Part shown: positions 43,694 through 64,000 of the stretch, in pieces | How positions within the stretch are numbered: position 1 is the stretch's first letter | Layout: every line of letters begins with the position of its first letter | From: Balanoglossus misakiensis | Lineage: Eukaryota > Animalia > Hemichordata | Length of the DNA stretch: 64,000 bases | Assembly (NCBI GenBank): GCA_040954595.2 | Contig: CM082577.2 | Location: forward strand, 13,523,903-13,587,902 | Direction of reading: 5' to 3' | Program-made: the position numbers and the translations under genes | Notes under the pieces: model-generated | Databases searched by the model: none | What the model saw: only the letters and a program-made list of their open reading frames with translations | What the model was told of the DNA's origin: nothing

Positions 43694-46596
43694 ACACGTG
43701 AAGCCGTCTTACTGCTCCAAGATCTATACAAGGAAAATGCATTCAAGATGAAAGATCCGCGAATTAAAAACGAAGCCGTTTGGAAGGCAATATCTGACAA
43801 ACTTCGGTTATTCTGCTGACTCCTGCGAACTGAAAATACCTTAATCTGAAGGCAACGTTTACAGCAACATCTGACCACAACAATACCACTGGTAATGGCA
43901 GGAAAGGTTGCCCAACCCATGACCAGTTAAACTGGAACGGGTCAGTCAAGGAGACGTAAGCCCGACCCAAGTACCAAAATTTGCTGCGGGAGACAAACGG
44001 GACTATAAAATCAGGGCCACAGGGAGCAGATGTTCACCACACTGTAAAAAAAGCGGACGCGAGACACGTAATTACGCGTTCAAACTTTCGATGTTGGCGT
44101 TCAAATTTGAACACACAGTGTTCATAGTGTTAACGCCATGTAATTAAATAATGCACACACTGGTGTTCTTAATCTGCACAGAATGCGCTAACAACCCCTC
44201 TCCTTCAAGTGTTCAAAACCAATGCAAGATCGTAATTTTGAATGTGTGAAAAAATCAACAATTTTCGGTTGTTTTTAGTCTAATATGGTTTTGTCAAATT
44301 TGTAATTGCCTGGTTGTCCGGCAAGCATATACGAACTTGATATAAGGTGTAGCACAACAAATGAAACATTTCTCTGGTCCGCAGTTGCCAAAAGCATGTT
44401 TTTCCCGAAGAGAAGGTTCACACAATAGTTTTAGAGCTGTCTCGTTCATCATTCACCTGCAACAAGAGTGAATTTTCACGAAAATTAAGAGATTTTCAGA
44501 CACCGGTTGACTATGCAGAAGAGTGCAATAGGCTGTTGGAATCAGAAAGAACTCAAGATGGAGAGACAAGCTCATCACCTTGCAGTAATGGGTCAGTGTC
44601 AAGTGTTGAATTATCTGATGAGGATGACATAGAGGAAAATAGCCCGAGTGCAGATTAAAAAAGCCCGAGTGCAGAACCAAATACCTCAGTGTAAGTGTTG
44701 AGGCGCACAAATATATTGTCAGTTTCCAGTAACCAAACCTACCCTAGTACAAACTCCCTGACACAATAAACATTTTTTAACAACTTGAAATTCCTGTGAT
44801 AATCCAACTTGAGTGTTGCTTCTTTGTTATGGCAAACTTGTTCTGCACAGTATAATTCATTACATTTTCTAAGCATACTGGTACGTATCAAATCATAATG
44901 AGCCAGAATGTCTGTTGTGTTAAGAATTCTTAGCTCATCTATATGATTTTAAGCATTTTCTAGCAGCACACAGCAGATAAATATCTAGCAATGGACATGT
45001 CATGAAAGAAGCAAAATGGGTCATGTTTTTTTCCGGATTAAAAAGATGAATTCAGTTTATCTTGGAAATTGCAAAGTAATCTGGGGCATATTGCTTGATA
45101 AGTCTCTCATTAGACTCTAGTGACAATGAAAGAACCCAAACTGAGTTAAAGAATGATGCATCATGCCTGAGTGAGATATGTGAAATTACATTTCTTCCCT
45201 ACATATCTAAAATTTGCTTCTTCACAAAAAGAAGTATTTCTGTGTATTTTTGTTTTATCCATCTCTGAAACAAGGAAGGAAACAAAATCAAGGACGCCGA
45301 AACGACTATGTGATCAAGCCAGAGCACTGGCCATACCAACTTCAAGAAAGCGACAAAAAACACAGGAAAAGTTGCCCAAATTGACGAAGAAACAGACGCT
45401 ATGAAGAGAAGTGTCAGGAATTGTCATATTGGTATCAAGCTTACACACTAGAAGTGGCAGCTTGAGTCTTCCTTGAAAGATAGGTTTTTATCTGCTGGCA
45501 ACTAAATTCAACTAGAAAGGTACATATTGTAATACGTGCACGGCTAATGAAATATTGTGTGCATTTTAGCAATAAACTTGTAATAGTAACTTACAGTAAC
45601 ATTATCAATGGCAATAGTAACTTACAGTAACATTATCAATGCAGAACAAGATTTTATGTTTTTATGAGTAATCTTTATGAATATAATTCACAATGGTATT
45701 TGAAACTTCACCACTTTAGAGGTACATATCTTTTAAGCATTGGATCAATAGAAGTTGGAAAAAAGATATGTGAAGTCAAAGAAAATTGGGTGAAGCACCT
45801 GCAGGAATATATGGAGGAGTATTATAATGAAGCGTATCAGCCACTTGCTGTCGTTTTAAAATGAGAAAGCAAGCAAAACTTCAGAGACAGCAATGTAAGT
45901 GAGAAAAATGTATATTGCCGTAAGGGAAATGGCATATAATCACATCTTTCTTGCATTTATTATGATACGAAATACAAATTAGCTCTAACTTCTAAGGCTT
46001 ACAGGGAAAGTGGTTTAAATATTCATTTGCATGATCAGTCAGATTTATTTTGACAGGTTTATATGTTATGCTCTAGTGTTCTAAACATGACGCAAAGACA
46101 GAACGCATGTTCGCAGCGTTGCCCATTATAATGAGTTCGCTGAACACTGCGTCTCACGTGACTAAGCAAAAAGACGCGTCACAAACCCCATCTAATGCAG
46201 TCGCATCGATGACCCATATTAGGAGTTGCTTATTAGCATAAAAATTTACATATCGTTAATATGTAGAACGCGATCTGACCAATGACGTGCCCGGAAATAC
46301 GTCTTTTCCCGCTCTTTGTTATGAAAATCACGACCTTTTTTTTTCAAATGTAAATTTTGGGGTCAAATACGCTGTTTGGGGATATCCCGTCAATTAAAAA
46401 CAAGAAAGTACGAGTCAAACTTGCTTCCAGGTCAATAAGAAAAATTTTCACCAGTGCTTTTGTGAAATAATAAATTTTGATTTCGGCGCCTACACTAGTT
46501 TTGACGACAGCGACACTACAAGCCCCGCACAACCGAAAAAGCAGGCGAGCGAACACATCACATGCATCACCAAGTCATCGTGTCACAATACAGAGA

Positions 46597-46989
46597 ATGC
46601 CTTCACTTATCGTACACCAAGTACTGGCAGTGGGGATGCACCGCTATAAAGGTGCACTTACTGTCGGTGCTGGGTATCGCCTTCTGCGGGAGAAATCCAA
46701 CCCATACGACCAGAACGCCGTCGCAATCGTCGACAATGAAGAAGGCGCCCGCGAAATATACGGACATTTGAAGAGGGATGCCGCTCAAGTGCTCGCAAGA
46801 GTGATCGATGCGGCTCTATCTCCAAATTCCGTATATTTCCTCAAACCAAAAGAAAGTCCCTTCTTTCATTCTCGGCGATGCGGCGTCGTTCAGGTGTGTA
46901 ATGTTGGATTTCACCTGAAAGAAGGCGACCTACAAAGAGTGAAGGCGTTCGTGGAGAGCAAGGGCTTCAATGTGACGGTGATCGCCTGA
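46597..46989 (+). CDS. Stand-alone HIRAN-domain protein (130 aa)
   Basis: VGMHRY..YRLLREKSNPYDQNAVAIV...IYGHLKRDAAQVLARVID fits the HIRAN pattern L.REP.NPYD.NAI.V...GY/HL.R..A..LA; intronless, first ATG in this frame at 46597. Confidence 0.8.
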   Translation: MPSLIVHQVLAVGMHRYKGALTVGAGYRLLREKSNPYDQNAVAIVDNEEGAREIYGHLKRDAAQVLARVIDAALSPNSVYFLKPKESPFFHSRRCGVVQVCNVGFHLKEGDLQRVKAFVESKGFNVTVIA

Positions 46990-48905: not shown

Positions 48906-51900
48906 TTACTGTTGCATTTCAAATTCAAACACTTCTGTTATAGCCCCTTGTAAATCATGCAAACTGTGCAGTAATTCCAGGAGCTTGGCTTTGTTTGTTG
49001 CCCGTCGTAGTTGTGTATGCAGTGATGTTCTGTCTGTCAACGGTAGTGTCTGAATTATGTCGTTGCATTCGTGTCGAAGTGTGGCATTTGTTTTATTTTC
49101 TTCTCTTTCACTTTCTTCTCTCTCGTTTTCTGTTACGAATAGTATTTTTTTTTGCCAGTGCCTGGATACTTACCTTGGCAGATGATACTTACCAGGGCAC
49201 GTCTTCTTTCTTCGGCATTGATGTTATAATTGCCAATGTGTCTATCCATAGCATCTCCTGAGATGGTAATAGGAGACCGACCAGCCTGATACTTGACATA
49301 AGATGTCTGTCTCAGTCGTCCCCTGAAACCCGTCAAGTCGTTAGAGTAGCCTGGGCGGCTACGTTCCAACGACTCGGGGTTTACAAGGCTAACGACTGAG
49401 AAGACTGTCTTTCTCAGACTGGCCAGGGCATCATGCCTGCTACAGATGACAACCCACTTACCCGAATCGGGCACTGGAGGAGCCCAGGCCTTGATGTTTT
49501 TGTTGTACTCCTCCAGGACGGCGTCCGCACCTTGATGGGCATCAGGCCTGCCAGATCGTGAAATGGCCTCGTACTTCTCCAGAGTTTGGAGAAGTATTGG
49601 TGGATACCGGGCACGGTCGGTCTCGTCATAGACGTCAATCAGTTGGTAAGTGGGGTGATTCCGACCGTGCCACAAGGTGCGAAGGAGACGCCGCCCAGCC
49701 CGTAGGTAAGTGGGTGAATTGAAGCGCGTGCCCTGTCGAAAGAGGAAAATTCCATGTAAATGTTGTAGAAGAATATTGTAAATGAAATTCATGTGAGAGT
49801 CTGTCACTGCTGCTGCATTCAACCAGCCAAGAAACAAACTGGTGGATGCATCAGCAGTGGGATTACTCACATGAAATTCATGTAGCAATTCGCTCCACAG
49901 ACAATCTCTGAATTTGCAAAGAAGGTCAAATGAAATGTGATGATCAGAACACTTCTTCACAAATTCTAGAGATCTGCCTGAGGAGAATCCCTGAGATAAA
50001 GCAAAGTCCCTGTAAATTACATCCCAATACATAGAAACAAATGATTTGACTGCATTGATTTCTTCATGTAAAAGACCCGTCCTTAAAACAACCCATGAAA
50101 ATATTCCCTCATGATCTTCTGATAAAATTTTACGGATAATTACATATGGCAAGCCATCACACCTGATTATAACCCATTCCCTATATGTACAATATAAATC
50201 TCCATTGCCCTCACCATGATTAAAATATTGTTTGATTTTTGCAAGTTTACCAATGTGATTAAGAATTTCTTTCACTGATTCGACACAATTAGGATTTACA
50301 AAAATAGGGGACATAACAGAAATATTTGCTTTATTTGCTTGTTTTGGGGGCTTTTTAACAATTCTGGTAGTTTGCTTACCCATGTGATCAACTTTTACTT
50401 CACCAACACACTCATGCAAGATGGTTCCCTTCTTCTTCTTTTTAATCTGTCTTCTGCCCGGTGAAATAAAAGTTGATGTCTTCTCTCTTTTCAGCTCCTT
50501 TCTATACTTACCCATCCAAATGCCACAACCTCGACACTTGGCAATTCTCGATTTGCCCTTCGTGTGGGTGAAACCACACTTAGGGCAAATGTCGATGCTG
50601 TCAGTATGTTGTTTTTGTTGTAAGTATGTGTCAATATAGTCAGTCTGTGGTGCATTATCTACATTGATAGTGGCTACAGAAGATAAAATTAAATTATCAA
50701 CATAAGAAGCAATGGACTCTTTGACAACTGAATCAAACTCATCATACTTGCTGTCCTCTGTATTGGAAACATCTGTCTCTGAAACCTTCTGCCACTGACT
50801 TGGCTTCAACCCAGAATCATATTGCAGTGATGATTCTGGGTCCAGCTGAGAAGCAATAATGTTAGTAAAAATATCCAAAGTAACTGAATTACCATTTCTG
50901 TTAATGTAATTTTTGGAAAGACGTTGTTCATTATCAAAAGAAAATTCAACTAACCCCTCAGGTGCATCTGGAAAATCAAAATTACCTTTAAAAAGAATAT
51001 TGTTAATAACATCATAACATGGGCCTGCTGTTACGTGGCCCATGAGATCAACTGCCAGGCGACTTCTGGTCAAACTAAATAAAATAACTTGAATTGCGGA
51101 AATAAAACTACTCACAAACTTAGGATTCCTGGCAGTATAAACAAGTTCAACGGCATGGGCAAGATATTGAGTGTTATTTTGGATTCCAGTATTTGGCATA
51201 CAGATCTCCTCAAGAAAGGAAACCAAGACAGGATTCCGTTCTGACAATAGATTATGTAAATCTATGTCTGATAAATTTTGAACGGAATACCTGTCTTGGT
51301 TTTGGCAGAGGAGATCTGCATGCCTGTAAATTTCTAAATTTTCTAATTTACCAATTTCCCTAATTGCTTCCACCCTCTTATCACTTGTGCTAAACCTCCC
51401 CCCGATTTCCCTTTTCAGCCTCTCAATTTCTTCCTCCAACTCTTTTATTTTCTCTTTGTCCTGAAAATAAAATAAAAATAAAATACACATTTTATTCAGA
51501 AATACCATTTTAATCATTTCAAGGCCCAAACTGACAGCATTTTCTTTGCATTGATTGTAGACCATTTCAATTACCTTGCTTCTGTCTTACTCTTCACCAG
51601 TCTTCTTTTGATTTTGTCGATGTTCACACTCCTGAAATAAATGCAAGATTTAAAGCATTAAATTATTATTCACTCATGTAAGTTAGACCAGAAGAACAAT
51701 TTAAAAAAAATCTACTTAAATTTGGCTATTGCAAGCTAACCAAAATTTCAAGGGTTTACAATACGTAGGAAACTTACGTAACAGTTCACCTCCATTGTAT
51801 GAGGCTGGCATGACCCAGCGGCCTCCGTGGCTAAACATGACTGTAAATACAAATAAAAATACAATAAAATTAATGCTTATGGTTTGTCTTTTTTTCCATA

Positions 51901-53454: not shown

Positions 53455-55893
53455 ATGGCATTAAATATTGGCACGATAGAGGAACCTATATTTAACTGTA
53501 GTTTGTGTACGTACTCGAGTGTTACATTTTCATCTTTCAAGAGGCACTTTGTACGTTTTCATAAAAACGACCCTAATTTTTTCTGTAGCTTGTTGTATTG
53601 ATTCTTGTGGTCACACAACTCATCGATGGACAAATTATAGGGTTCATGTTCATAGAAAACATAGACATGTAAACAGTGAGGTTGTTGATGACATTGTTGA
53701 CATTGAAACAGATGAAGATATTGTGCACCCATTTGTAAACGAGACAAGTGTAAACCATTACAACGCCATGTTTACTCTGAGTTTAGAATCAAAGCACAAT
53801 GTTTCACAAGCTGGCATTGATAATGTTGTGTCAACGACAAACAGTTTAGTTCAGAGTCATATGGATATATACAGGAAACGTGTGGTCGACAAATTGGAAA
53901 GTATTGGTATAGATCCACACATCATTGATGACATTGATATTGATACGGGGTTAGAATTATTTTATACGGACACAAGAAGAAAGACGTTCTATAAAAAGAA
54001 GCTAGAAACGCTAGTTGAGCCCAAGGCTGTAACAATTGGTAAAAAGTTTGTCACTAAGGATGGTATGGTACACGAAATGCCGACGTTGGGATATATTGTT
54101 CCTTTTAGTAAATGTTTACAACAGTTGTTAATGTTGCCTGAAGTATGGGAACATGTACAGCATCCTCATGTGTCATCTGATGACTCTTTCATGAATGACA
54201 TCTGTGACAGAGACTTTGTAAGAAATCATCCTCTATTTCTGAATGACAATCGATCACTTCAGATTGTTCTGAATTGTGATGATTTGGAAATTGTTAACCC
54301 AGTGGGCAGTTAAAAAGCACAAACTGACGGTTTTCTATTTCAGTTTGGCAAATATTCCCCCCCGAGTACAGATCTAAACTTCATGCAATTCAACTTCTGG
54401 CAGTATGTAAATCAAAAGATATCAGAAATGCTGATTCAGAAAGAAAGTTGCTCTCTGATTTTATAGACACAATGATTGAGATGGGAAATGACGGCCTAGA
54501 AATGGACCTACATGGTGAAAAACATGTCATGGTTTCTGCAGATACTTTGGCAGCAAATTGGCTAGGGAAATTTAAGGAGGGGGTTTCATTTGCCCTGAAA
54601 AATTGCAGAAGATGTGAAGTGGAGGCTGCAAACCTGAAGCATGTGTTTGATGAAAGGCAAGTTGTGTTAAGAAATAGAGAGACACACATGGAAAGATGTA
54701 ATGACCTTTCGGAAATGAGTAAAAAGGCGAGGATATACTGGAGTAAGTTGTGGGGAGTAAATGGTTCTAGTGAACTTTTGAAGATAAGGCAGTTTGATTT
54801 GCTTTCTGGCCTTGTTCAAGATCCAATGCATATTCTGTTGGAAGGAGTTGTCCAACATGAGCTGTCCCTTGCTCTCATTAGATTTATATATGTGCAAAGA
54901 CTGTTCACAATTAGTTGGTTGAATACAGCAGTTAGAGGATTTCCATATTCATATTTGCATATTCGATCAAAACCAGAGTCAATAGAGAAGAAACACATTG
55001 ATGGCTGTGGAACAATCAAGCAGAGTGCCTCAGCTATGCTCACCTTAGTGCATACTCTTCCTATCATTATTGGGCATCGAATACCCGTTGGTGACATTTA
55101 TTGGCAAAATATGTTGCGTCTGATACAAATTGTACTGTTTTGTACATCATCATATTGTACAAGAGAAACAGCAATGTATTTGAAAAATCTTATTGCTGAG
55201 TATCTGTACAATTTTAAGTCTTTGTATTCCAAAGCATCATTCATCCCTAAAATGCATTATATGGTGCACCTTCCTTCCCAAATGTTGATGTATGGACCAC
55301 TTCGACACCATTGGTGCATGAGATTTGAAGGCAAAAATGGTTATTTTGCAAATAAGAGGTATAAGAACTTCAGAAATATTCCACTGACATTAGCAACTCG
55401 CCATCAAATATACATGGCATACATGCAGGCTGGTTATGATGGTGGACGGTCAGGTTCGTTTTTGTATGGAGGTGACACAGTGGGTCCTGGTGTTGAAGTT
55501 AGTTTTAGGGAAGTGTATCCAGAGTTGCTCCATCCATTCTCTCAGATGACAATGATTGATGTTGATAGAGTGTATCAAACTTCACATGTCTCAATTCACG
55601 GTAATGATTACTATAGGGGTTGTGCTCTGGTAATTGATTATTGTGATGATATACCAGTATTTTGTATATTACTTGATGTAGTTGTGCTGGATCATGTGAA
55701 ATATTTCATCCTTGAAGAAGTTGAAGCAGAATTTAATGGGCATATTTTAGCCTATGCAGTCAGCTCAGTAGACAGGAAGAAGATAGTCAGACATTCAGAA
55801 TTAAAATTTAAGTGGCCCCTTAGTGTTTACACATACCAGGGTTCAGATGTTGTCATGAATACTAACAGTCACACATTCATAAACCCATTTTAA
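53455..55893 (+). pseudogene. EnSpm/CACTA-type transposase with two N-terminal C2H2 fingers, frameshifted
   Basis: CSLC..HFVRFH and CCIDSC..HVHRKH; DDLEIVNPVGS..HKL..FYF..NIPPEYRS; ADTLAA..CRRC; DPMHILLEG; PKMHYMVH..GPLRHHWCMRFEGKN. Breaks at ~53580 and ~54311-54345. Confidence 0.88.
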
Positions 55894-56077
55894 AACCTTT
55901 GTTGATATACATTTCTCATGTTCAATGCACCAGTTTCATGAGATATGGTAGTGGGGACCAACAGTCTATAGTTACATAAAGAATGCATTTCATTCCAATA
56001 AGCAATATGCCATTTTGCCAGATGACAATACTTAACAAAGTACTCCTAATTTGAATGTTATTGTGTGTTAGCTCACA

Positions 56078-56466
56078 ATGCCAGTGTTCAAAGTATGGAA
56101 TGCAGGAAGGACAGTGAAAAAGGCTGTAGTTGCAACGAATCTGTCTGAAATCAAAGAAAAAGGTGAGCTGTTTTAATTTTCTTATTGTATCGTAGAAGTA
56201 ATACTTATCAATTACTTATGCTATAGCTTAGCTTAAAACCAGTAATCTCTTTAGGAGTTTCCTGTAGATTTAACATGTAAATTTACATCTAAATTCAACT
56301 AAAATGATTTCTAAAGAGTGTTCTCTTTATTTGCAGGGGCACAGAAAGTTCTCTTGCCTCCTTGTGTTCATCCTATGGACATAACTGTAGTTCTGGAGGA
56401 AGATGGTACCATCATAGATGAAGACGACATCCTCTTGGAACTTGGTGGCAAAACTTTGCTCCTGTT
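56078..56466 (+). pseudogene. CIDE-N-domain gene, 5' two exons, truncated by the RAG1-like element
   Basis: Exons 56078-56162 and 56337-56466 (GT-AG, phase 1): MPVFKVWNAGRTVKKAVVATNLSEIKEKGAQKVLLPPCVHPMDITVVLEEDGTIIDEDDILLELGGKTLLL, carrying the CIDE-N signature VLEEDGT.(V/I)DE. Confidence 0.8.
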
Positions 56467-57107
56467 CACGTATGTTCAATACGCTGGATAATGTCAACTG
56501 AGTTCTACACATGCTCAGAAAAAATAAGCATAATTCTTGGGTCATGACCTAGATAGATGACGTATTGTGTGTAAATACAAAGGAACGGCCCATAGAAACC
56601 GTCCCGCCCCTTCATGTTTCCCCGGACTTTCTGCCAATAAATTTGTACCATTAAATGTCAATAATCTGTCAAACTATCCATATATGTCTATATTTTTCGC
56701 ATAATTAGCTGTATGGGTGGTTCCAAATCCAAAACGCGCGAAATTTTGACTTTGCGGTCGTCGAGCCTAGTCCGTGTCAGACAGACGCTCAGGCTGGGTG
56801 ACGACATCTGTTTCACAGGTTACGTAAAAAATAATCGTATTTTAAACAATTTTCTTGAGTTTTACTAGACATTTGGTTTTCAACAAACGTTTCTTCATCA
56901 ATTACATTTTTATTTTATGAATTAGTTCTCTGAGGCTAATTTTATTTTCATTGCTCTCCCGATAAAAACATTTTTTTTGCGATCGTAGGAGACGCCCGTT
57001 GCTAGGGACGCCATTTCATTTTTCGCTGTCAGTGATCGCATTTTGTTGTTTGATAGGGTACTTTCGCTTTATTTTGGGGGTTCGATTTTAGGTTGTGATA
57101 GAAAATA

Positions 57108-60100
57108 ATGATGTTTGGTTTAGAATTCCATAGATTTTGTTTGAGTAAATTGTGTAGAATTTGTGGGGGGAGAGCCCAAAGTTCATTGAGTTCATTACAA
57201 GGAAAATCGCCCAAGCAATGTTCTGTTTATGTCAACGAAATATCAGTTTTTGGGGTTGATATTTCGAATGATGAAACAGATGTACATCCCTCAAACTTGT
57301 GTTACCTATGTTACAAAAAATATGTAACAATGCAAATTTTTATGGTACCAGTGATCAGTGGGTGGGCCATCCTAGGGTTGGGTCCTGTAGTATATGTGAG
57401 ATGTTTACAAAACAAAGTAAGGGTGGGAGACCAAAAAAAAATAAAAGGGGAAGGCCACCAACTTATAAGAAAGGGGAGGGGGAATATACTATCAATTCTG
57501 GGGAGGGGTCAATTTTGACAAATGAGGGGTTGGAATATCTAACAACACAAGCCAGGGCTTCACAGACATTTCATTGTCCAGAAAACTTCAATCCAATGCT
57601 AACTGAAAATGATGTTAAGTGTAGTGTGTGTTTGTCTTTGTTCAATTGTCCATTGGAAAGTCCTTGTGAACATGTCTGATGTAGTGAGTGTCTAATCAAG
57701 GTATTCAAAACTGAAAATATGTCATGTATTCGTTGTCCTTGTTGTAGTCAGTCGGTCTCATGTTTTTCTGTTCGTCCAGCTAAACGTTATTTTCTTAATA
57801 TTTTGTGTTCTCTTCCAATGGAATGTCTTAATTGTAAACAAACTGTTGTCCTTGATTCTGTGTCGCAGCATGTCTGTCCCCAAAGACCAAAGCCTGTCCC
57901 CAATGTCACAAATACTGAAAGTACAATTACCGCCAATATTTTACAAAGGCCACCAGACTTGCCACTCACTCCTGCATTGGAAAAGGTGGCAACTCATCTT
58001 CTTAAAACAAAACTTCACCAGTCAACTGATGGTAAGACTGCTGTTTACAAAACTGGCGGACCGGTGAGTTTCACTTTCAATATCATAATCATAATTGCGT
58101 GTATGGCATGTTTACATTAACCCTTTCAATTCAAAATGAAACTGGAACATTTGTTTGATTTCAATAAAATGTAAAATTCTAAATTTGTGAGCTGCCAGTA
58201 CTCAAACAACGAAGCATCAAGATAAGAAATAGTAATTTTATTGTCTTTAATGATTTTCAAGAATCTTGTTGTGATGCACACTCCACAACCAAGAAAATCA
58301 TCAGAGCAGGCAACAAGGACTACCATCAGACAAAGGTCCAGGTATCTGGAAGAAGAAAGGGACATAATTAGTAAGGGCAGTACAAACCAGCAGCACAGAG
58401 ATGAGATACAAGTGGCATCAAAGCAACAAAGAATAGATCAAATATTTGACAAAATACCAAGAACAAGAGTGAGTCATGAGGAGATGCTCTCATTGAAAGC
58501 GGATAGGGATCTCATGGAATTCCAACAGAAAACTGAAAAGGTAGGTTGATAGCTATGTCACAAGTTATTGCTAATCAAATGTCACAATTTCATGCATACA
58601 GCTGCTTATAGTAATACATATAAAAATTATAATGATTGTCTTACAAGTCTTACATTCTTTTTATTTTATATCAAACTCAGATGGTTCAACCAATGGGGTG
58701 TAAAAACAGCTGGAGAAGGCAAGATTAGACAAGTAAAGGAAGACATCGTCGGAGAAAACATTCTTGCTGAAAATCTTCCTTTTAGGTTTACAGATGAGAA
58801 TGGACACAAACAGATGAAGCTGGCACCATGGATATGTGTGGATGACTTACCCTTGAGGGTCATCAAACAATTGGAAGAAAATGAGAAGTAAGTTTGAAAC
58901 AATATAATTTCTTTTTCTTAGACTGACCATGAATTTATCTATGACAGAAATGAAAATTTGGCATCACTCGCTAAATATACAAACAATGTGTGAGGTATTG
59001 ACTTGTTAGTATTAAGTAATCTGCCATTCCGCCACAATGGTTGTTGTATCAGAATGAGGCTGGTCACATCCTGACAATTTTTCATTGATTTTAATATTTA
59101 AACACTATAAAAATCTGCCAGGGGTGGGACTGCTACATTTTGACACTGGTGAGGTTGATTGGCAAACAGGACATTGACTCATGCATAATACTTACCTTTC
59201 TATCTACGCTAAAAAAATATGAAGACATGGGGTCCATAGAGTCCTGGAAAATCCTGGAAAGTCCTTGAATTTGATAGTGTTCCTGGAAGGATGCAATTTA
59301 CCCCAGAAATACCTGGAAAATAATCAATAAATAACAATGATTATTCATTGTGTTTATACAGATAATAGTATATGTAGGTCGTGTTAACTATATGATCTTA
59401 CCGGTCAACACTTCTAAAAAATCAAGATGTTTGTTTAAATACTCCTGGAAAACTAGTTGGAAACTCCTGAAATGTTATTCGATACCAGATCTAAGAACCT
59501 GGTGATGAGTAATTTAATTATGACATGTTCAATACTGAATGGTTTCCTGGTTTATTTTGTAGACTGAACAACCTGACATGGCATCACAACAAAATCCCAG
59601 CTAAAGAAATCTGGCTGAAAATCGGTGGTGACAAGGGAGGAGGAAGTTTTAAAGGCATGTTTCAATTGGCTAATGTGAATCGTCCAAACAATAAAAACAA
59701 CACAGTCGTCTTCTGTCTCTATGAAAGTGGGGACTGCTATTCGAATTTGTCCACAGCTATTGCAAGGTTCAAGGAGCAAATCAATCAACTGAAATCATTA
59801 ACCTGGAAGTAAGTTTATTTCTTAACATCAAACAAGTTTTGTGTAGAACTTCAATTATTTAAAGATATGTTATCAATACAATTTTGGAGTACATTGTAGT
59901 ATGAGACAAAACACATATTTCTCACTAATGATGTTTTCTTTTATTTTGATTGGAATAGAGACAAAGCATTCCGAGTATTTGCTTTTGGCGACTACGAATA
60001 TCTTTGTAGAATGTATGGTCTCAGTGGTCCTAGTGGAAGGCATTTCTGCCTATGGTGCCTTGCCACACAAGAGGATGCCCAGACTGCAAGGCACCACAGG

Positions 60101-61922
60101 CAGATACCTCTAAGGACCCTGGCCCAATTGGAACAAGACCATGACAAGTTCAACACCCTGGGTAATGGCAAGTTAGCTAATGCAAAGAAGTACAATAATG
60201 TCATACACAATGCCATCTTTGACATTGAAATATCACAGGTAATCACAATTACTGACTTCTAATTAATTTTCTCTTGTCCCTATCCAGTCGATACTGATAT
60301 CTGTGGTTTTAATTTGACAATAATATTCACCAACGATTTAACCACTGTCTCTGTGCTTCCCTATATCAAAAGCAAGGATGATAAATTATACTATGAATTT
60401 TACTGTTACAGGTGTGTGTACCGAGTCTTCATCTTGATCTGGGAATTTACCTGAGGTTTTATAACCTGATGGAGGCAGAAATAAATGCATTAGACAGGAA
60501 AATCGGGGTATACCTCGCTGAGTGCCATGCTGACACCAATGGGTACACCCCTGAGTTCCAACAATATGTACTAGCTATGGAAAAAGTTGCTGAAAAGCAA
60601 GAAGATTTACAGCAACTAAAGCTTCAGACTCAGAGTGACAATCTACAAAAAGAAATAGAACTACTGGTAAGAAATCATTATATGTACATGTATTGGCATG
60701 GTATCTGTACGTAACTCATCCGAATATATACTGATGCCAGTGATTGTACCTAACAAATGAAATTCTGCTGAGAAAATGAACTTGTAAATCATACAAATTT
60801 AATCCCTTTTTTATTATAGGAGAAGGCAATCAAGGACATGTTGGAGAACACCACATTGAAAGTCACAGCTGGCATACTAGCCCAAAAGCTCGACAGTGTA
60901 CTCCAACAGATTGGCGTTCATAGACAGGCTTACCATGGAATGTCCTTTGTGGGAAACCATGTTCACAAGTGTTTGCAAGTAAGTTTCTTAGTGATAACAT
61001 GATCTTACCTTGTAGAGTGAATGATGACAGACTGGACAGCTAGTTACCCTTTTCCAAGGCACCATAATATTAAAGTATAATAACAATCTGGTATTTGAGA
61101 ATGAGAATGAGAATATACACATTAATGTATGTACATGGTAATGGAAATATAATATTATATTATTGATTATATGCTGACTTAAGTTTTGGGCAATTATATC
61201 TTCTGAAATGATACTAAATAAACATATTATCTATCTACCTAGGATACCAATATCAACAAGTTGACTGATTCTATTCTGTGTGAAGTAGAAACAGTTTGTC
61301 CCAGTTTGGCTGCAGAAGCCCGTGCTGTATGTTTCAAATTTAACAGGCTATTCAAGTTACTTGCCAGGTGCCACAGTGGTTACAGCAAAGCTGAGAGTAT
61401 GGAAGCTGCTGAGATTGATGAATTAGGTAGGTAAAGTACAAATCAACACTTACCTTATTACCACATCCAAACTGGACCCCAGTTCCGAGAGAGTGTGACG
61501 TAGAACAGGGGGTATATGGATTTTTGATCTGTCCTGTCCTATGTCACACACTATGTCACTAATTTCTATGTAATGTATTTGTTCACCTTACAGAAACAAA
61601 TATTGACAGCTTGATGGCATATTACAGAGAATATTTTCCCAATGCAAGGATTTCCCCCAAACTACATATTTTGGAGGACCACACCACACAATTTATAAGA
61701 TCTTGGAGATTTGGATGCGGCTTCCATGGAGAACAAGGTGGCGAGAGTGTGCATGCCGACATGAATAATATAACATCAAATATCAGAGGACTCAAGGACC
61801 CTTTACAAATCGCCAAATCCATGCTGAAAGAGCACTGGGTACAGGTATCACCAACAACACTCCAACACAAACCACCAGTAAAAAAGAGAAAGTCTAGCGC
61901 ATCTATGACTAGTGTTACATAG
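57108..61922 (+). pseudogene. RAG1L: RAG1-like transposase, 9 exons, three lesions in the N-terminal part, catalytic-core exons open
   Basis: Exons 57108-58063, 58262-58540, 58681-58887, 59563-59808, 59959-60238, 60412-60667, 60820-60978, 61243-61426, 61594-61922. CND (LCRICG..DVHPSNLCYLC..WVGH..CSIC), RING (CSVC..CEHV*CSEC..CPCC), ZFA (CLNC..HVC). Core KIGGD(59630), FGD(59990)YEYLCRMYGLSGPSGRHFCLWC, LHLDLG, FVGN, PKLHILEDH, EQGGE(61743)S. Frameshifts at ~57320 and ~58505, stop at 57677-57679. Confidence 0.87.
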
Positions 61923-62276
61923 AACTGGTGTACGAAAAATTAATTGTAGTTCCTCACATAATACTTACCTTGCTGTCTCCGAGAGAAAGTCTACTAGCCA
62001 AATCCATGCTGAAAGAGCACTGGGTACAGGTATCACCAACAACACTCCAACACAAACCACCAGTAAAAAAGAGAAAGTCTAGCGCATCTATGACTAGTGT
62101 TACATAGAACTGGTGTACGAAAAATTAATTGTAGTTCCTCACATAATACTTACCTTGATGTCTCCGAGAGAAAGTCTACTAGTGCATCTATGACTAGTGT
62201 TGCATAATTAGAACTGTTGTATGAAAAATTAATTGTAGTTCCTCATGGCAATACTGTACTTACCTTGATGTGTCCG
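61812..62276. repeat. 185-bp tandem duplication plus a partial third copy at the RAG1L 3' end
   Basis: 61812-61996 is near-identical to 61997-62181; diverged partial copy at 62182-62276. Confidence 0.9.
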
Positions 62277-63499
62277 TGGACTCAGGACTCCGTGAATATC
62301 TGCAAAGCAAAAGGAAGTATTAAAATAGTATGTAATATAGTGTGTAATATACTGTAGTGTGTGAAAGGAATATTAAACAAATTGTGATACCGTACCACAT
62401 ATGTGATAAACTGTACATTTGTAGTTTGTCTTTCTTTAACTTTGTTTAGCTTTTTGTATTACCTGTTAAATTAAAATATTACACAAGGTTGCACAGTTAA
62501 AAGTTCATGTGTTTGCTTTTAATTTTTACAACTGTCAATTAACCTACCTTAGTACCATCAGATACACAAGATCTAAATAAATGACTGCATCCATCAACAG
62601 CATGGAATATTGAGATACATCTACATGTATGATTAGTGATTACACCATCATGAACATTTGAAAAAAAATGTGTTCTGAATGATAAAAAAAACAATAATTC
62701 GTTCAAGTCTAAAAATAAACAGTAGAAATGTAGAAATACAGTTTTACTCGACCCTTCACTGTACTGGTTTACGATTGAACGGGCAATTACATCGTTTGCC
62801 AAAACGTTTACGTTTGTTGTGTTGATCAAACAATCGAAGGTCAAAATCACTTCCGGTTTATGCGTTAACGATCAGCCATTAAGCATGTTGCGTGATGAAC
62901 GTAAACATTGTGACCCGTAGTACTTTTCTGGGGCTTTTCCTCCATTGCGACTTCATTTAATAACATCTATTTTTATCCCTTGTACATTTTAACTCCCCCA
63001 AAAGACCAGACATAAGATCTGACATTGTATTTGACGTTCAAACCTGTACTTTGATGGAATGTCCTCCGTCTGCAAAAAATTAGCCGCACATGTTGTCTGG
63101 TCCAGTAGTAGCGACAGCTTACGTACTTTTAAATTTGATACCATTCTCATCGGGAAAAACTCAAGAAAATTGTATAATCTATGAATGAATTATCGATTTT
63201 CGTAAAATTAAAAAAAAATACCGTTGCCGTGTTTTCGGCGGTAAAAGACCAAATAAAACGGTTTAATCTTCCGGTTTTCGCTGTTAAGATTCCTCGAGAC
63301 GTGATCGGATCTAATTATTAATTCATATAACCCTAACCCCGAGAGAAACGTGAGTTTTTATTGGCTAAAATGAAGGGGGTCACCGTTGCTAACGTTCGTT
63401 GCTAGCCTAATTAGCATATGATCTCAGGGAAATTCTTGTTCCGTCATACGCATGTGCACTACTCAGTTGACGCATAGAACATACGTGCGACCTAACTAC

Positions 63500-64000
63500 A
63501 AGGTATCTTCTGCAGATTTCGTCAGAAGTTTGATAAGCACCCGTATGACCGCGAGACGTGGAACAGGACAGCCTGTGAGCGATTGCAACTCGCTAGCATC
63601 AAAGAGCATGAACAGACCGCCGCGCATCGAGACGCAGTTAGCCGTGAACTGGCGTCAGTAAGCAGTTCGAACATCGCAGAAGGTATGCAGCCAGAAGTAA
63701 AAAGCGACGCGATCACTTCAGCAGTTTAGAGGTCTTTATTTTTTTTAGCAAAACGCCGAATCCCACATACTACGAAATTTGAGCCCACTCTAGATTTACT
63801 CACGCAATTCGGGTTGTCTGTGAAAGAAGATTTACGCGTCACTAAGAGTACAACGGTGAAGATACTGGTGTACTCGGACATTCGATCCGCAATATTTGCG
63901 TAGAACTGTCTATTTTACCTTCGGAAACGAGTCCGTGCTTCAGCTACACTGCCATTTTTATACGCCAAGGATGAGCCGAACAACGCAGCAGATGCCGTGA
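63500..64000 (+). pseudogene. hAT (ZNF862-like) transposase N-terminal fragment
   Basis: GIFCRF..K..WNRTACERLQLASIKEHEQTAAHRDA (TTF-type finger remnant), then after a frameshift LYFLAKRRIPHTTKFEPTLDL; begins abruptly at the RAG1L right TIR. Confidence 0.65.

Follow-up and report, generated by a model that had tools for sequence, protein, structure and literature searches.

The window analysed here is a 64,000-nucleotide stretch of the genome of the hemichordate Balanoglossus misakiensis (assembly GCA_040954595.2, contig CM082577.2, positions 13,523,903 to 13,587,902 of the forward strand). At 56467-63487 it carries a mobile element which, judged from its sequence, is a damaged Chapaev cut-and-paste DNA transposon, a distant cousin of RAG1 and a newly found, defective member of an established superfamily. 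Both tips of the element begin with the same CAC 11-mer, followed by a spacer of 15 nt on the left or 5 nt on the right and then by an inner block which is 19/22 identical between the two ends (Table 1), all as described in an earlier model reading of these letters (the sequence-only reading). The 64-kb window has no further copy of the 11-mer, which is nevertheless weak evidence on its own, since a mean of 1.04 hits is expected by chance when one mismatch is allowed. A 9/9 match within the inner block at an offset of -10 was reached in 0/300 shuffles. The spacers, which had been called unrelated, are not wholly so: their first 5 nt match at 3/5, and the two ends can therefore be aligned as one terminal inverted repeat (TIR) with a single 10-bp gap. 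The CAC...GTG termini are present and the element junctions are exact in contigs, with no target-site duplication (TSD) at this copy (the left flank ends in TGTT and the right flank starts with CGAC). Subterminal inverted repeats lie 300-370 nt inside the ends, and similarity between the end regions is patchy over ~400 nt.

Table 1. Features of the Chapaev element, in coordinates of the window.
Feature	Position	Strand	Remarks
Left terminal block, CAC 11-mer	56467..56477	+	family pattern CAC-N4-GTT
Left (long) spacer, 15 nt	56478..56492	+	
Left inner block	56493..56514	+	family 8-mer at 56494-56501, position 28 from end
Subterminal inverted repeat arm, 29 nt	56835..56863	+	86% complementary to 63156-63184
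Chapaev transposase gene, 9 exons, 965 codons, 8 GT-AG introns	57108..61922	+	from homology and splice sites; exons 57108-58063, 58262-58540, 58681-58887, 59563-59808, 59959-60238, 60412-60666, 60820-60978, 61243-61426, 61594-61922
Chapa (NZD/CND-like) double zinc finger, then KGGRPKK basic patch	57129..57400	+	Pfam RAG1_imp_bd, E 3.3e-05; frameshift near 57314
RING finger and C2H2-type finger	57620..57877	+	motifs at codons 172-257; stop codon 57677-57679
NBD-like (nonamer-binding domain) and dimerisation segment	58049..58540	+	KTGGP at end of exon 1, then exon 2; frameshift near 58502; weak
First catalytic Asp (GGDKG), putative	59630..59632	+	column nearly invariant in 53 homologues
Second catalytic Asp (FGDYE)	59990..59992	+	aligned to Asp of RAG1 GYDEK
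Catalytic Glu, second E of GEQGGES	61743..61745	+	aligned to RAG1 position 962
Tandem 185-bp duplication over end of last exon	61812..62181	+	missing from one contig of run X2
Subterminal inverted repeat arm	63156..63184	-	partner of 56835-56863
Right inner block	63450..63471	-	family 8-mer at 63463-63470, position 18 from end
Right (short) spacer, 5 nt	63472..63476	-	length equal in second insertion
Right terminal block, CAC 11-mer	63477..63487	-	

The gene model between these ends confirms the KIGGDKGGGSFK first-Asp motif noted earlier and contains exactly three lesions (two frameshifts and one stop codon), the number already counted. The RAG1-type zinc fingers proposed for the N-terminus are also present, in the form of Chapa, RING and C2H2 fingers. 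Pfam scored neither half of the RING because the stop codon interrupts this region; RING families were matched in 8/53 homologues. The core contains the motifs CLWC, SLHLDLG, KLHILEDH and GEQGGES, which correspond to the C(2)C, LH and H(3-4)H features of the Chapaev DDE core. The lesions prevent the window copy from encoding a complete transposase, yet it might still be mobilised in trans, since both ends are intact.

Chapaev transposons that combine a Chapa domain with a RING finger form a subgroup reportedly recognised by Kapitonov and Jurka in 2007. The N-terminal layout of the window gene (Chapa, KGGRPKK, RING, C2H2) is that of Chapaev-1/2_BF and Chapaev-1/2_NV, as compared by eye with supplement 5 of PMC4411706. 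Two Chapaev subgroups are said there to carry Chapa and RING, with cores only distantly related to Transib (PMC4411706). The N-terminus of one homologue, P0066, resembles that of Chapaev-ACa by eye, and a search of the supplements of two papers for the core motifs did not link the core directly to any named Chapaev. The family is large, with 1,163 representatives at E 1e-10, and its named members come from sea cucumber, sea urchin, crinoid, amphioxus, snail and sponges; among viral contigs and prokaryote genomes no relative was confirmed.

The sequence-only reading had placed the element in a divergent RAG1L lineage, and there are several resemblances on which such a view can draw. RAG1 is the closest solved fold of a structure model (pLDDT 87.7) of homologue P0003, an Antedon protein, at E 3.2e-15 compared with 5e-10 for ProtoRAG and 5e-06 for Transib, the family profile matches RAG1 residues 101-489 at E 3e-12, and CAC ends with a one-turn asymmetry are also described for PflRAGL-A (10.1101/2023.08.20.553239). 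Even so, membership of RAG1L is highly improbable. In the structural alignment the P0003 model has 9-13% identity over RAG1, ProtoRAG and Transib, and 11-13% to the RAG1/ProtoRAG cores, whereas TransibSU and RAG1L cores share >30% (PMC4411706); the ~26-39% core identity to RAG1 that is found in RAG1L is not reached by the Chapaev homologues. The catalytic region contributes 3.6 bits to the profile match. DUF1280 is matched by Pfam in the core of the window gene and in 53/53 aligned homologues, a RAG1 core family in 0/53. PDB searches with a window exon and with the full core of homologue P0001 found no RAG1, RAG1L/ProtoRAG or Transib, the full-core tests being those of homologues 43% identical to the window gene.

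The organisation of the element also differs from RAG1L. RAG2L was not found in the 1,565 bp 3' of the gene, which leave no room for it and where the longest minus-strand open reading frame (110 aa) has no Pfam or PDB match; solitary RAG1L copies do exist (PMC7204232). The CCGHC tail is absent from the C-terminus of the gene model, and the D-E spacing is 332 compared with 253 for RAG1L. The 5-bp TSDs of RAGL transposons are found neither at the window copy nor among its relatives, which show 4 bp. What stands of the original description is therefore a cut-and-paste transposon with CAC ends and, in the homologue model, a RAG1 fold, while its assignment to RAG1L falls. Transib was considered as well and rejected on the presence of Chapa and RING, the lack of CACAATG with an A-rich nonamer, and a D-E spacing outside the 206-214 of that group.

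To see how the ends are built across the family, relatives were drawn from a metagenome scan, in which the best 80 of 195 were taken, forming 54 families. Where ends were called without the inner block, this was done by TSD in three families and otherwise by a CAC-N4-GTT pattern 380-700 nt from the gene. The pattern was derived from the first examples. By chance it is expected 0.09 times per 320 nt, and a small number of the ends may accordingly be wrong; a single ambiguous end was omitted. A motif search without positional prior was run on 33 ends (31 from relatives and two from the window). In 26/33 ends the inner 8-mer it returned, with consensus GCCACTTA, begins at position 18-20 or 28-30 from the tip; in 30 shuffles, run with fewer seeds, those bins held 11.6 ends on average and at most 16. 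In the other seven the 8-mer was placed at positions 14, 15, 21, 21, 22, 26 and 27. The left end of L048, counted as long, is probably misassigned. When the motif was rebuilt without the window it still picked positions 28 and 18 there. In the left ends of L018, L048 and L063 the inner motif at position 18 takes, by eye, a different form (GGCA and then AT-rich bases), which the general motif missed in L048 and L063.

Ten families, the window included, have both ends. The 8-mer is offset by 10-11 bp between the ends in 8/10 of them (10, 11, 10, 10, 10, 11, 10 and 10 bp in the window, L035, L058, L015, L044, L075, L021 and L028, respectively). Five of the six relatives whose ends were chosen independently of the inner block fit this offset. 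A motif-free scan found it in 7/10 pairs, one of them a tie, with a per-pair chance of 0.16-0.25; for relatives alone the count was 6/9 (binomial P ~0.01, from a run with wrong L005 ends). Spacer identity between families is 24-29% and core identity 27-59%. Both polarities occur. Elements with a short left end form one clade (support 0.987) in a midpoint-rooted FastTree of 67 cores, from which three short rows were dropped, and the long-left window, L021 and L028 elements are 27-33% identical to one another. On the sequences sampled, the offset spans the tree despite the kinship among pairs. Chapaev elements are characterised by TSDs of 3-4 bp; a TSD of 4 bp was found at 9/18 distinct relative sites, and one of 5 bp at none (the 18 include the wrong L005 call). 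No further convincing pair of ends emerged when 29 loci were searched under relaxed conditions.

L005 had at one point been taken as a symmetric element, and was rejected as such when its inverted similarity was seen to continue outward past the CACs in question, which are thus internal. At L005:66-4448 the imperfect inverted repeats are unusually long (~200 nt), with the inner motif at 29 and 23, and this is the sole clear misfit to the offset.

Further copies of the window element were compared in contigs of runs X1 and X2, both from one sample. A second insertion in run X1 has another flank and retains the 5-nt right spacer; together with the offset in related families, this rules out a private indel as the source of the 10-bp difference, the outcome that the sequence-only reading had named as refuting it. 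Position 17 of the inner block is variable among other copies, at the left end as well as the right (56509 and 63455; A to G in the register of the end). At the left end the variant contigs begin exactly 30 nt before the change at 56509 which, as indirect evidence from contig ends, fits a left spacer of unchanged length. The X1/X2 contigs differ from the window at all three lesion sites, and the lesions therefore look particular to the window copy; one contig is also without the 185-bp 3' duplication. A pattern scan of metagenome contigs for the window's own end gave 0 hits.

The same runs bear on the missing TSD. An empty right flank is present in X1 and X2, and its upstream sequence is not the left flank of the window and is found nowhere in the window. 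The window copy thus joins two unrelated sites, which explains why no duplication is seen; the junction may stem from a deletion next to the element, from recombination between two copies or from a join made in the assembly. In the left flank (53480-56466) a CIDE-N domain frame (Pfam E 4.6e-06) is cut exactly at the Chapaev end. Upstream of it lie two long frames (53480-54313 and 54328-55893) which we take to be an EnSpm/CACTA-type transposase, with a weak DUF4218 match only in Pfam. The right flank (63488-64000) holds a degenerate zf-C17orf113 fragment or repeat (Pfam), probably the N-terminus of a hAT-type transposase. Further out, a transposase-like 817-aa frame on the minus strand (49133-51586) has a weak DUF6589 match only, and beside it on the plus strand is a HIRAN-domain frame (46474-46989, E 8.8e-12).

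We lean slightly towards the view that Chapaev transposase uses the one-turn difference between its ends much as RAG uses 12/23 spacers, favouring the pairing of a long end with a short one. By analogy with RAG and Transib, the DDE core of a transposase dimer would cut at the CAC tips, and the AT-rich inner 8-mers of the two ends would be held by a dimeric NBD-like domain. The NBD-like dimer would tilt to absorb the extra helical turn, as the RAG1 NBD dimer is described to do when it enforces 12/23 by pivoting (10.1101/2023.08.20.553239), and strand transfer into the target would follow, with a stagger of 4 bp. A RAG2-like partner would not be encoded. In the family profile, the stretch just ahead of the core lines up with RAG1 384-489 and thereby with the RAG1 NBD. 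When a model of the L028 segment was compared with 48,161 chains, the RAG1 NBD (3gnb) came second (Z 4.7, rmsd 3.8, 58 aligned), and two RAG1 cores were also among the matches listed.

Several observations weigh against such a pairing rule. Two of the 10 pairs do not fit, L048 with its variant motif and no offset found, and L005 with an offset of 6 and no TSD. For L021, L028 and L005 the ends lack TSDs and were chosen with a score that favours the inner block itself, and the pairs are not independent, as six of the 10 lie in one clade. The Chapaev inner motif is not the RSS (recombination signal sequence) nonamer. As for the putative NBD, a Z of 4.7 is below the tool's meaningful level and is tied with an unrelated helical top hit, the isolated segment has no RAG1 match by profile search or Foldseek, and a TGG/TRG-x-P-type motif is present in only 13/53 long homologues, the window having GGP and not GRPR. 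RAG1 without RAG2 is reported to show no 12/23 preference (PMC8355894), and BbeRAGL relies on its terminal 15-17 bp (PMC7204232). The conserved lengths are, moreover, equally predicted by a phasing constraint alone.

Under such a constraint the inner motif would have to sit on a fixed side of the DNA helix with respect to the cut, so that spacers of n and n+10 function and other lengths are lost. Each end would keep its inherited length, and any pair of ends would be cut equally. Phasing without a pairing rule accounts for the same bimodal positions and unrelated spacers and fits the sequence data nearly as well as pairing does. It is also consistent with the occurrence of both symmetric and asymmetric families in Transib (PMC1131882; PMC9435367). 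A switch of polarity would take one inversion of the interior, and the subterminal inverted repeat could mediate an inversion that flips long and short ends. What counts against phasing alone is that no short/short or long/long element was confirmed among the 10 two-ended families, the candidate L005 having internal CACs, and that over deep divergence 9/10 left ends of relatives within the two bins are short and 13/14 right ends long. We regard phasing alone as a credible explanation with a minority chance of being right.

A third possibility, which we think unlikely, is that the conserved inner block serves a host factor or another transposase domain such as Chapa, with a resemblance to 12/23 that is convergent or coincidental. 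In its favour, the motif differs from the nonamer, the evidence for an NBD is weak, and other transposon superfamilies often have unequal ends. Against it, RSS nonamers start at 20 and 31 (7+12 and 7+23; PMC1131882), and the Chapaev 8-mer at 18-20 and 28-30 comes within 1-2 bp of them at both lengths; the NBD-like segment is in the right place and register, and sister lineages show the same asymmetry.

The origin of the 12/23 asymmetry is debated, and has been traced to a Transib seed (PMC8355894), to RAGL-A (10.1101/2023.08.20.553239) or to an ancestral state in subgroup I Transib (PMC9435367). Chapaev is not mentioned in the passages that make these proposals. Should this geometry hold for Chapaev, a more distant lineage with the N-terminus of RAG1, the asymmetry is either older than all three lineages or a direct consequence of the NBD dimer. 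A bolder proposal, tentative and in our view somewhat more apt to fail than to hold, is that Chapaev obeys a real 12/23-type rule without RAG2, by means of an NBD homologue and its own inner motif. The asymmetry would then go back to an ancestor shared by Chapaev, Transib and RAG, in a geometry older than the Transib/RAG split and surviving in many invertebrate transposon families. Chapaev transposases that are single proteins, apparently intact and with defined ends, are numerous and offer a test bed for a pairing rule without RAG2.

End asymmetry in Chapaev was not found in the literature searched, which took in neither the Repbase Reports defining Chapaev nor Panchin and Moroz 2008, subscription papers or bioRxiv supplements. 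There is none in the passages searched of PMC4079192, PMC12730594, PMC8355894, PMC7204232, 10.1101/100735, 10.64898/2026.01.24.700457 or 10.64898/2026.08.26.747230. As far as searched, a family-wide 12/23-like geometry of the ends is an undescribed feature of Chapaev.

The window element is closest to Chapaev-1/2_BF and -1/2_NV, with which it shares the N-terminal domains, a distant RAG1-type DDE core, a single gene, CAC...GTG termini and, in its relatives, 4-bp TSDs. Compared with described Chapaevs it is broken and without a TSD, and its one-turn bipartite ends have not been described in the literature searched. RAGL transposons with asymmetric TIRs (10-bp in PflRAGL-A, 4/13 in AanRAGL and 27/31 in ProtoRAG) likewise have two conserved blocks with unequal spacers, and AanRAGL also has a second element that is not a nonamer (PMC9435367). 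Unlike the Chapaev element, RAGL transposons have RAG2L, the CCGHC tail and 5-bp TSDs. Transibs (subgroup I, Transib5, Transib2_AG and TransibN1-3_AG) resemble it in having a single-gene DDE transposase, CAC ends and, in some families, a 12/23-like asymmetry; they differ in having no Chapa or RING, in their CACAATG with an A-rich nonamer, in their shorter D-E spacing and in usually making 5-bp TSDs. A one-turn asymmetry has been published for some Transibs (PMC1131882), for subgroup I Transibs and AanRAGL (PMC9435367) and for PflRAGL-A (10.1101/2023.08.20.553239). With RAG1 and the 12/23 RSS, Chapaev shares the core fold (in the homologue model), the N-terminal zinc fingers, the CAC tip and an AT-rich inner motif ~20 and 30 nt from the end.

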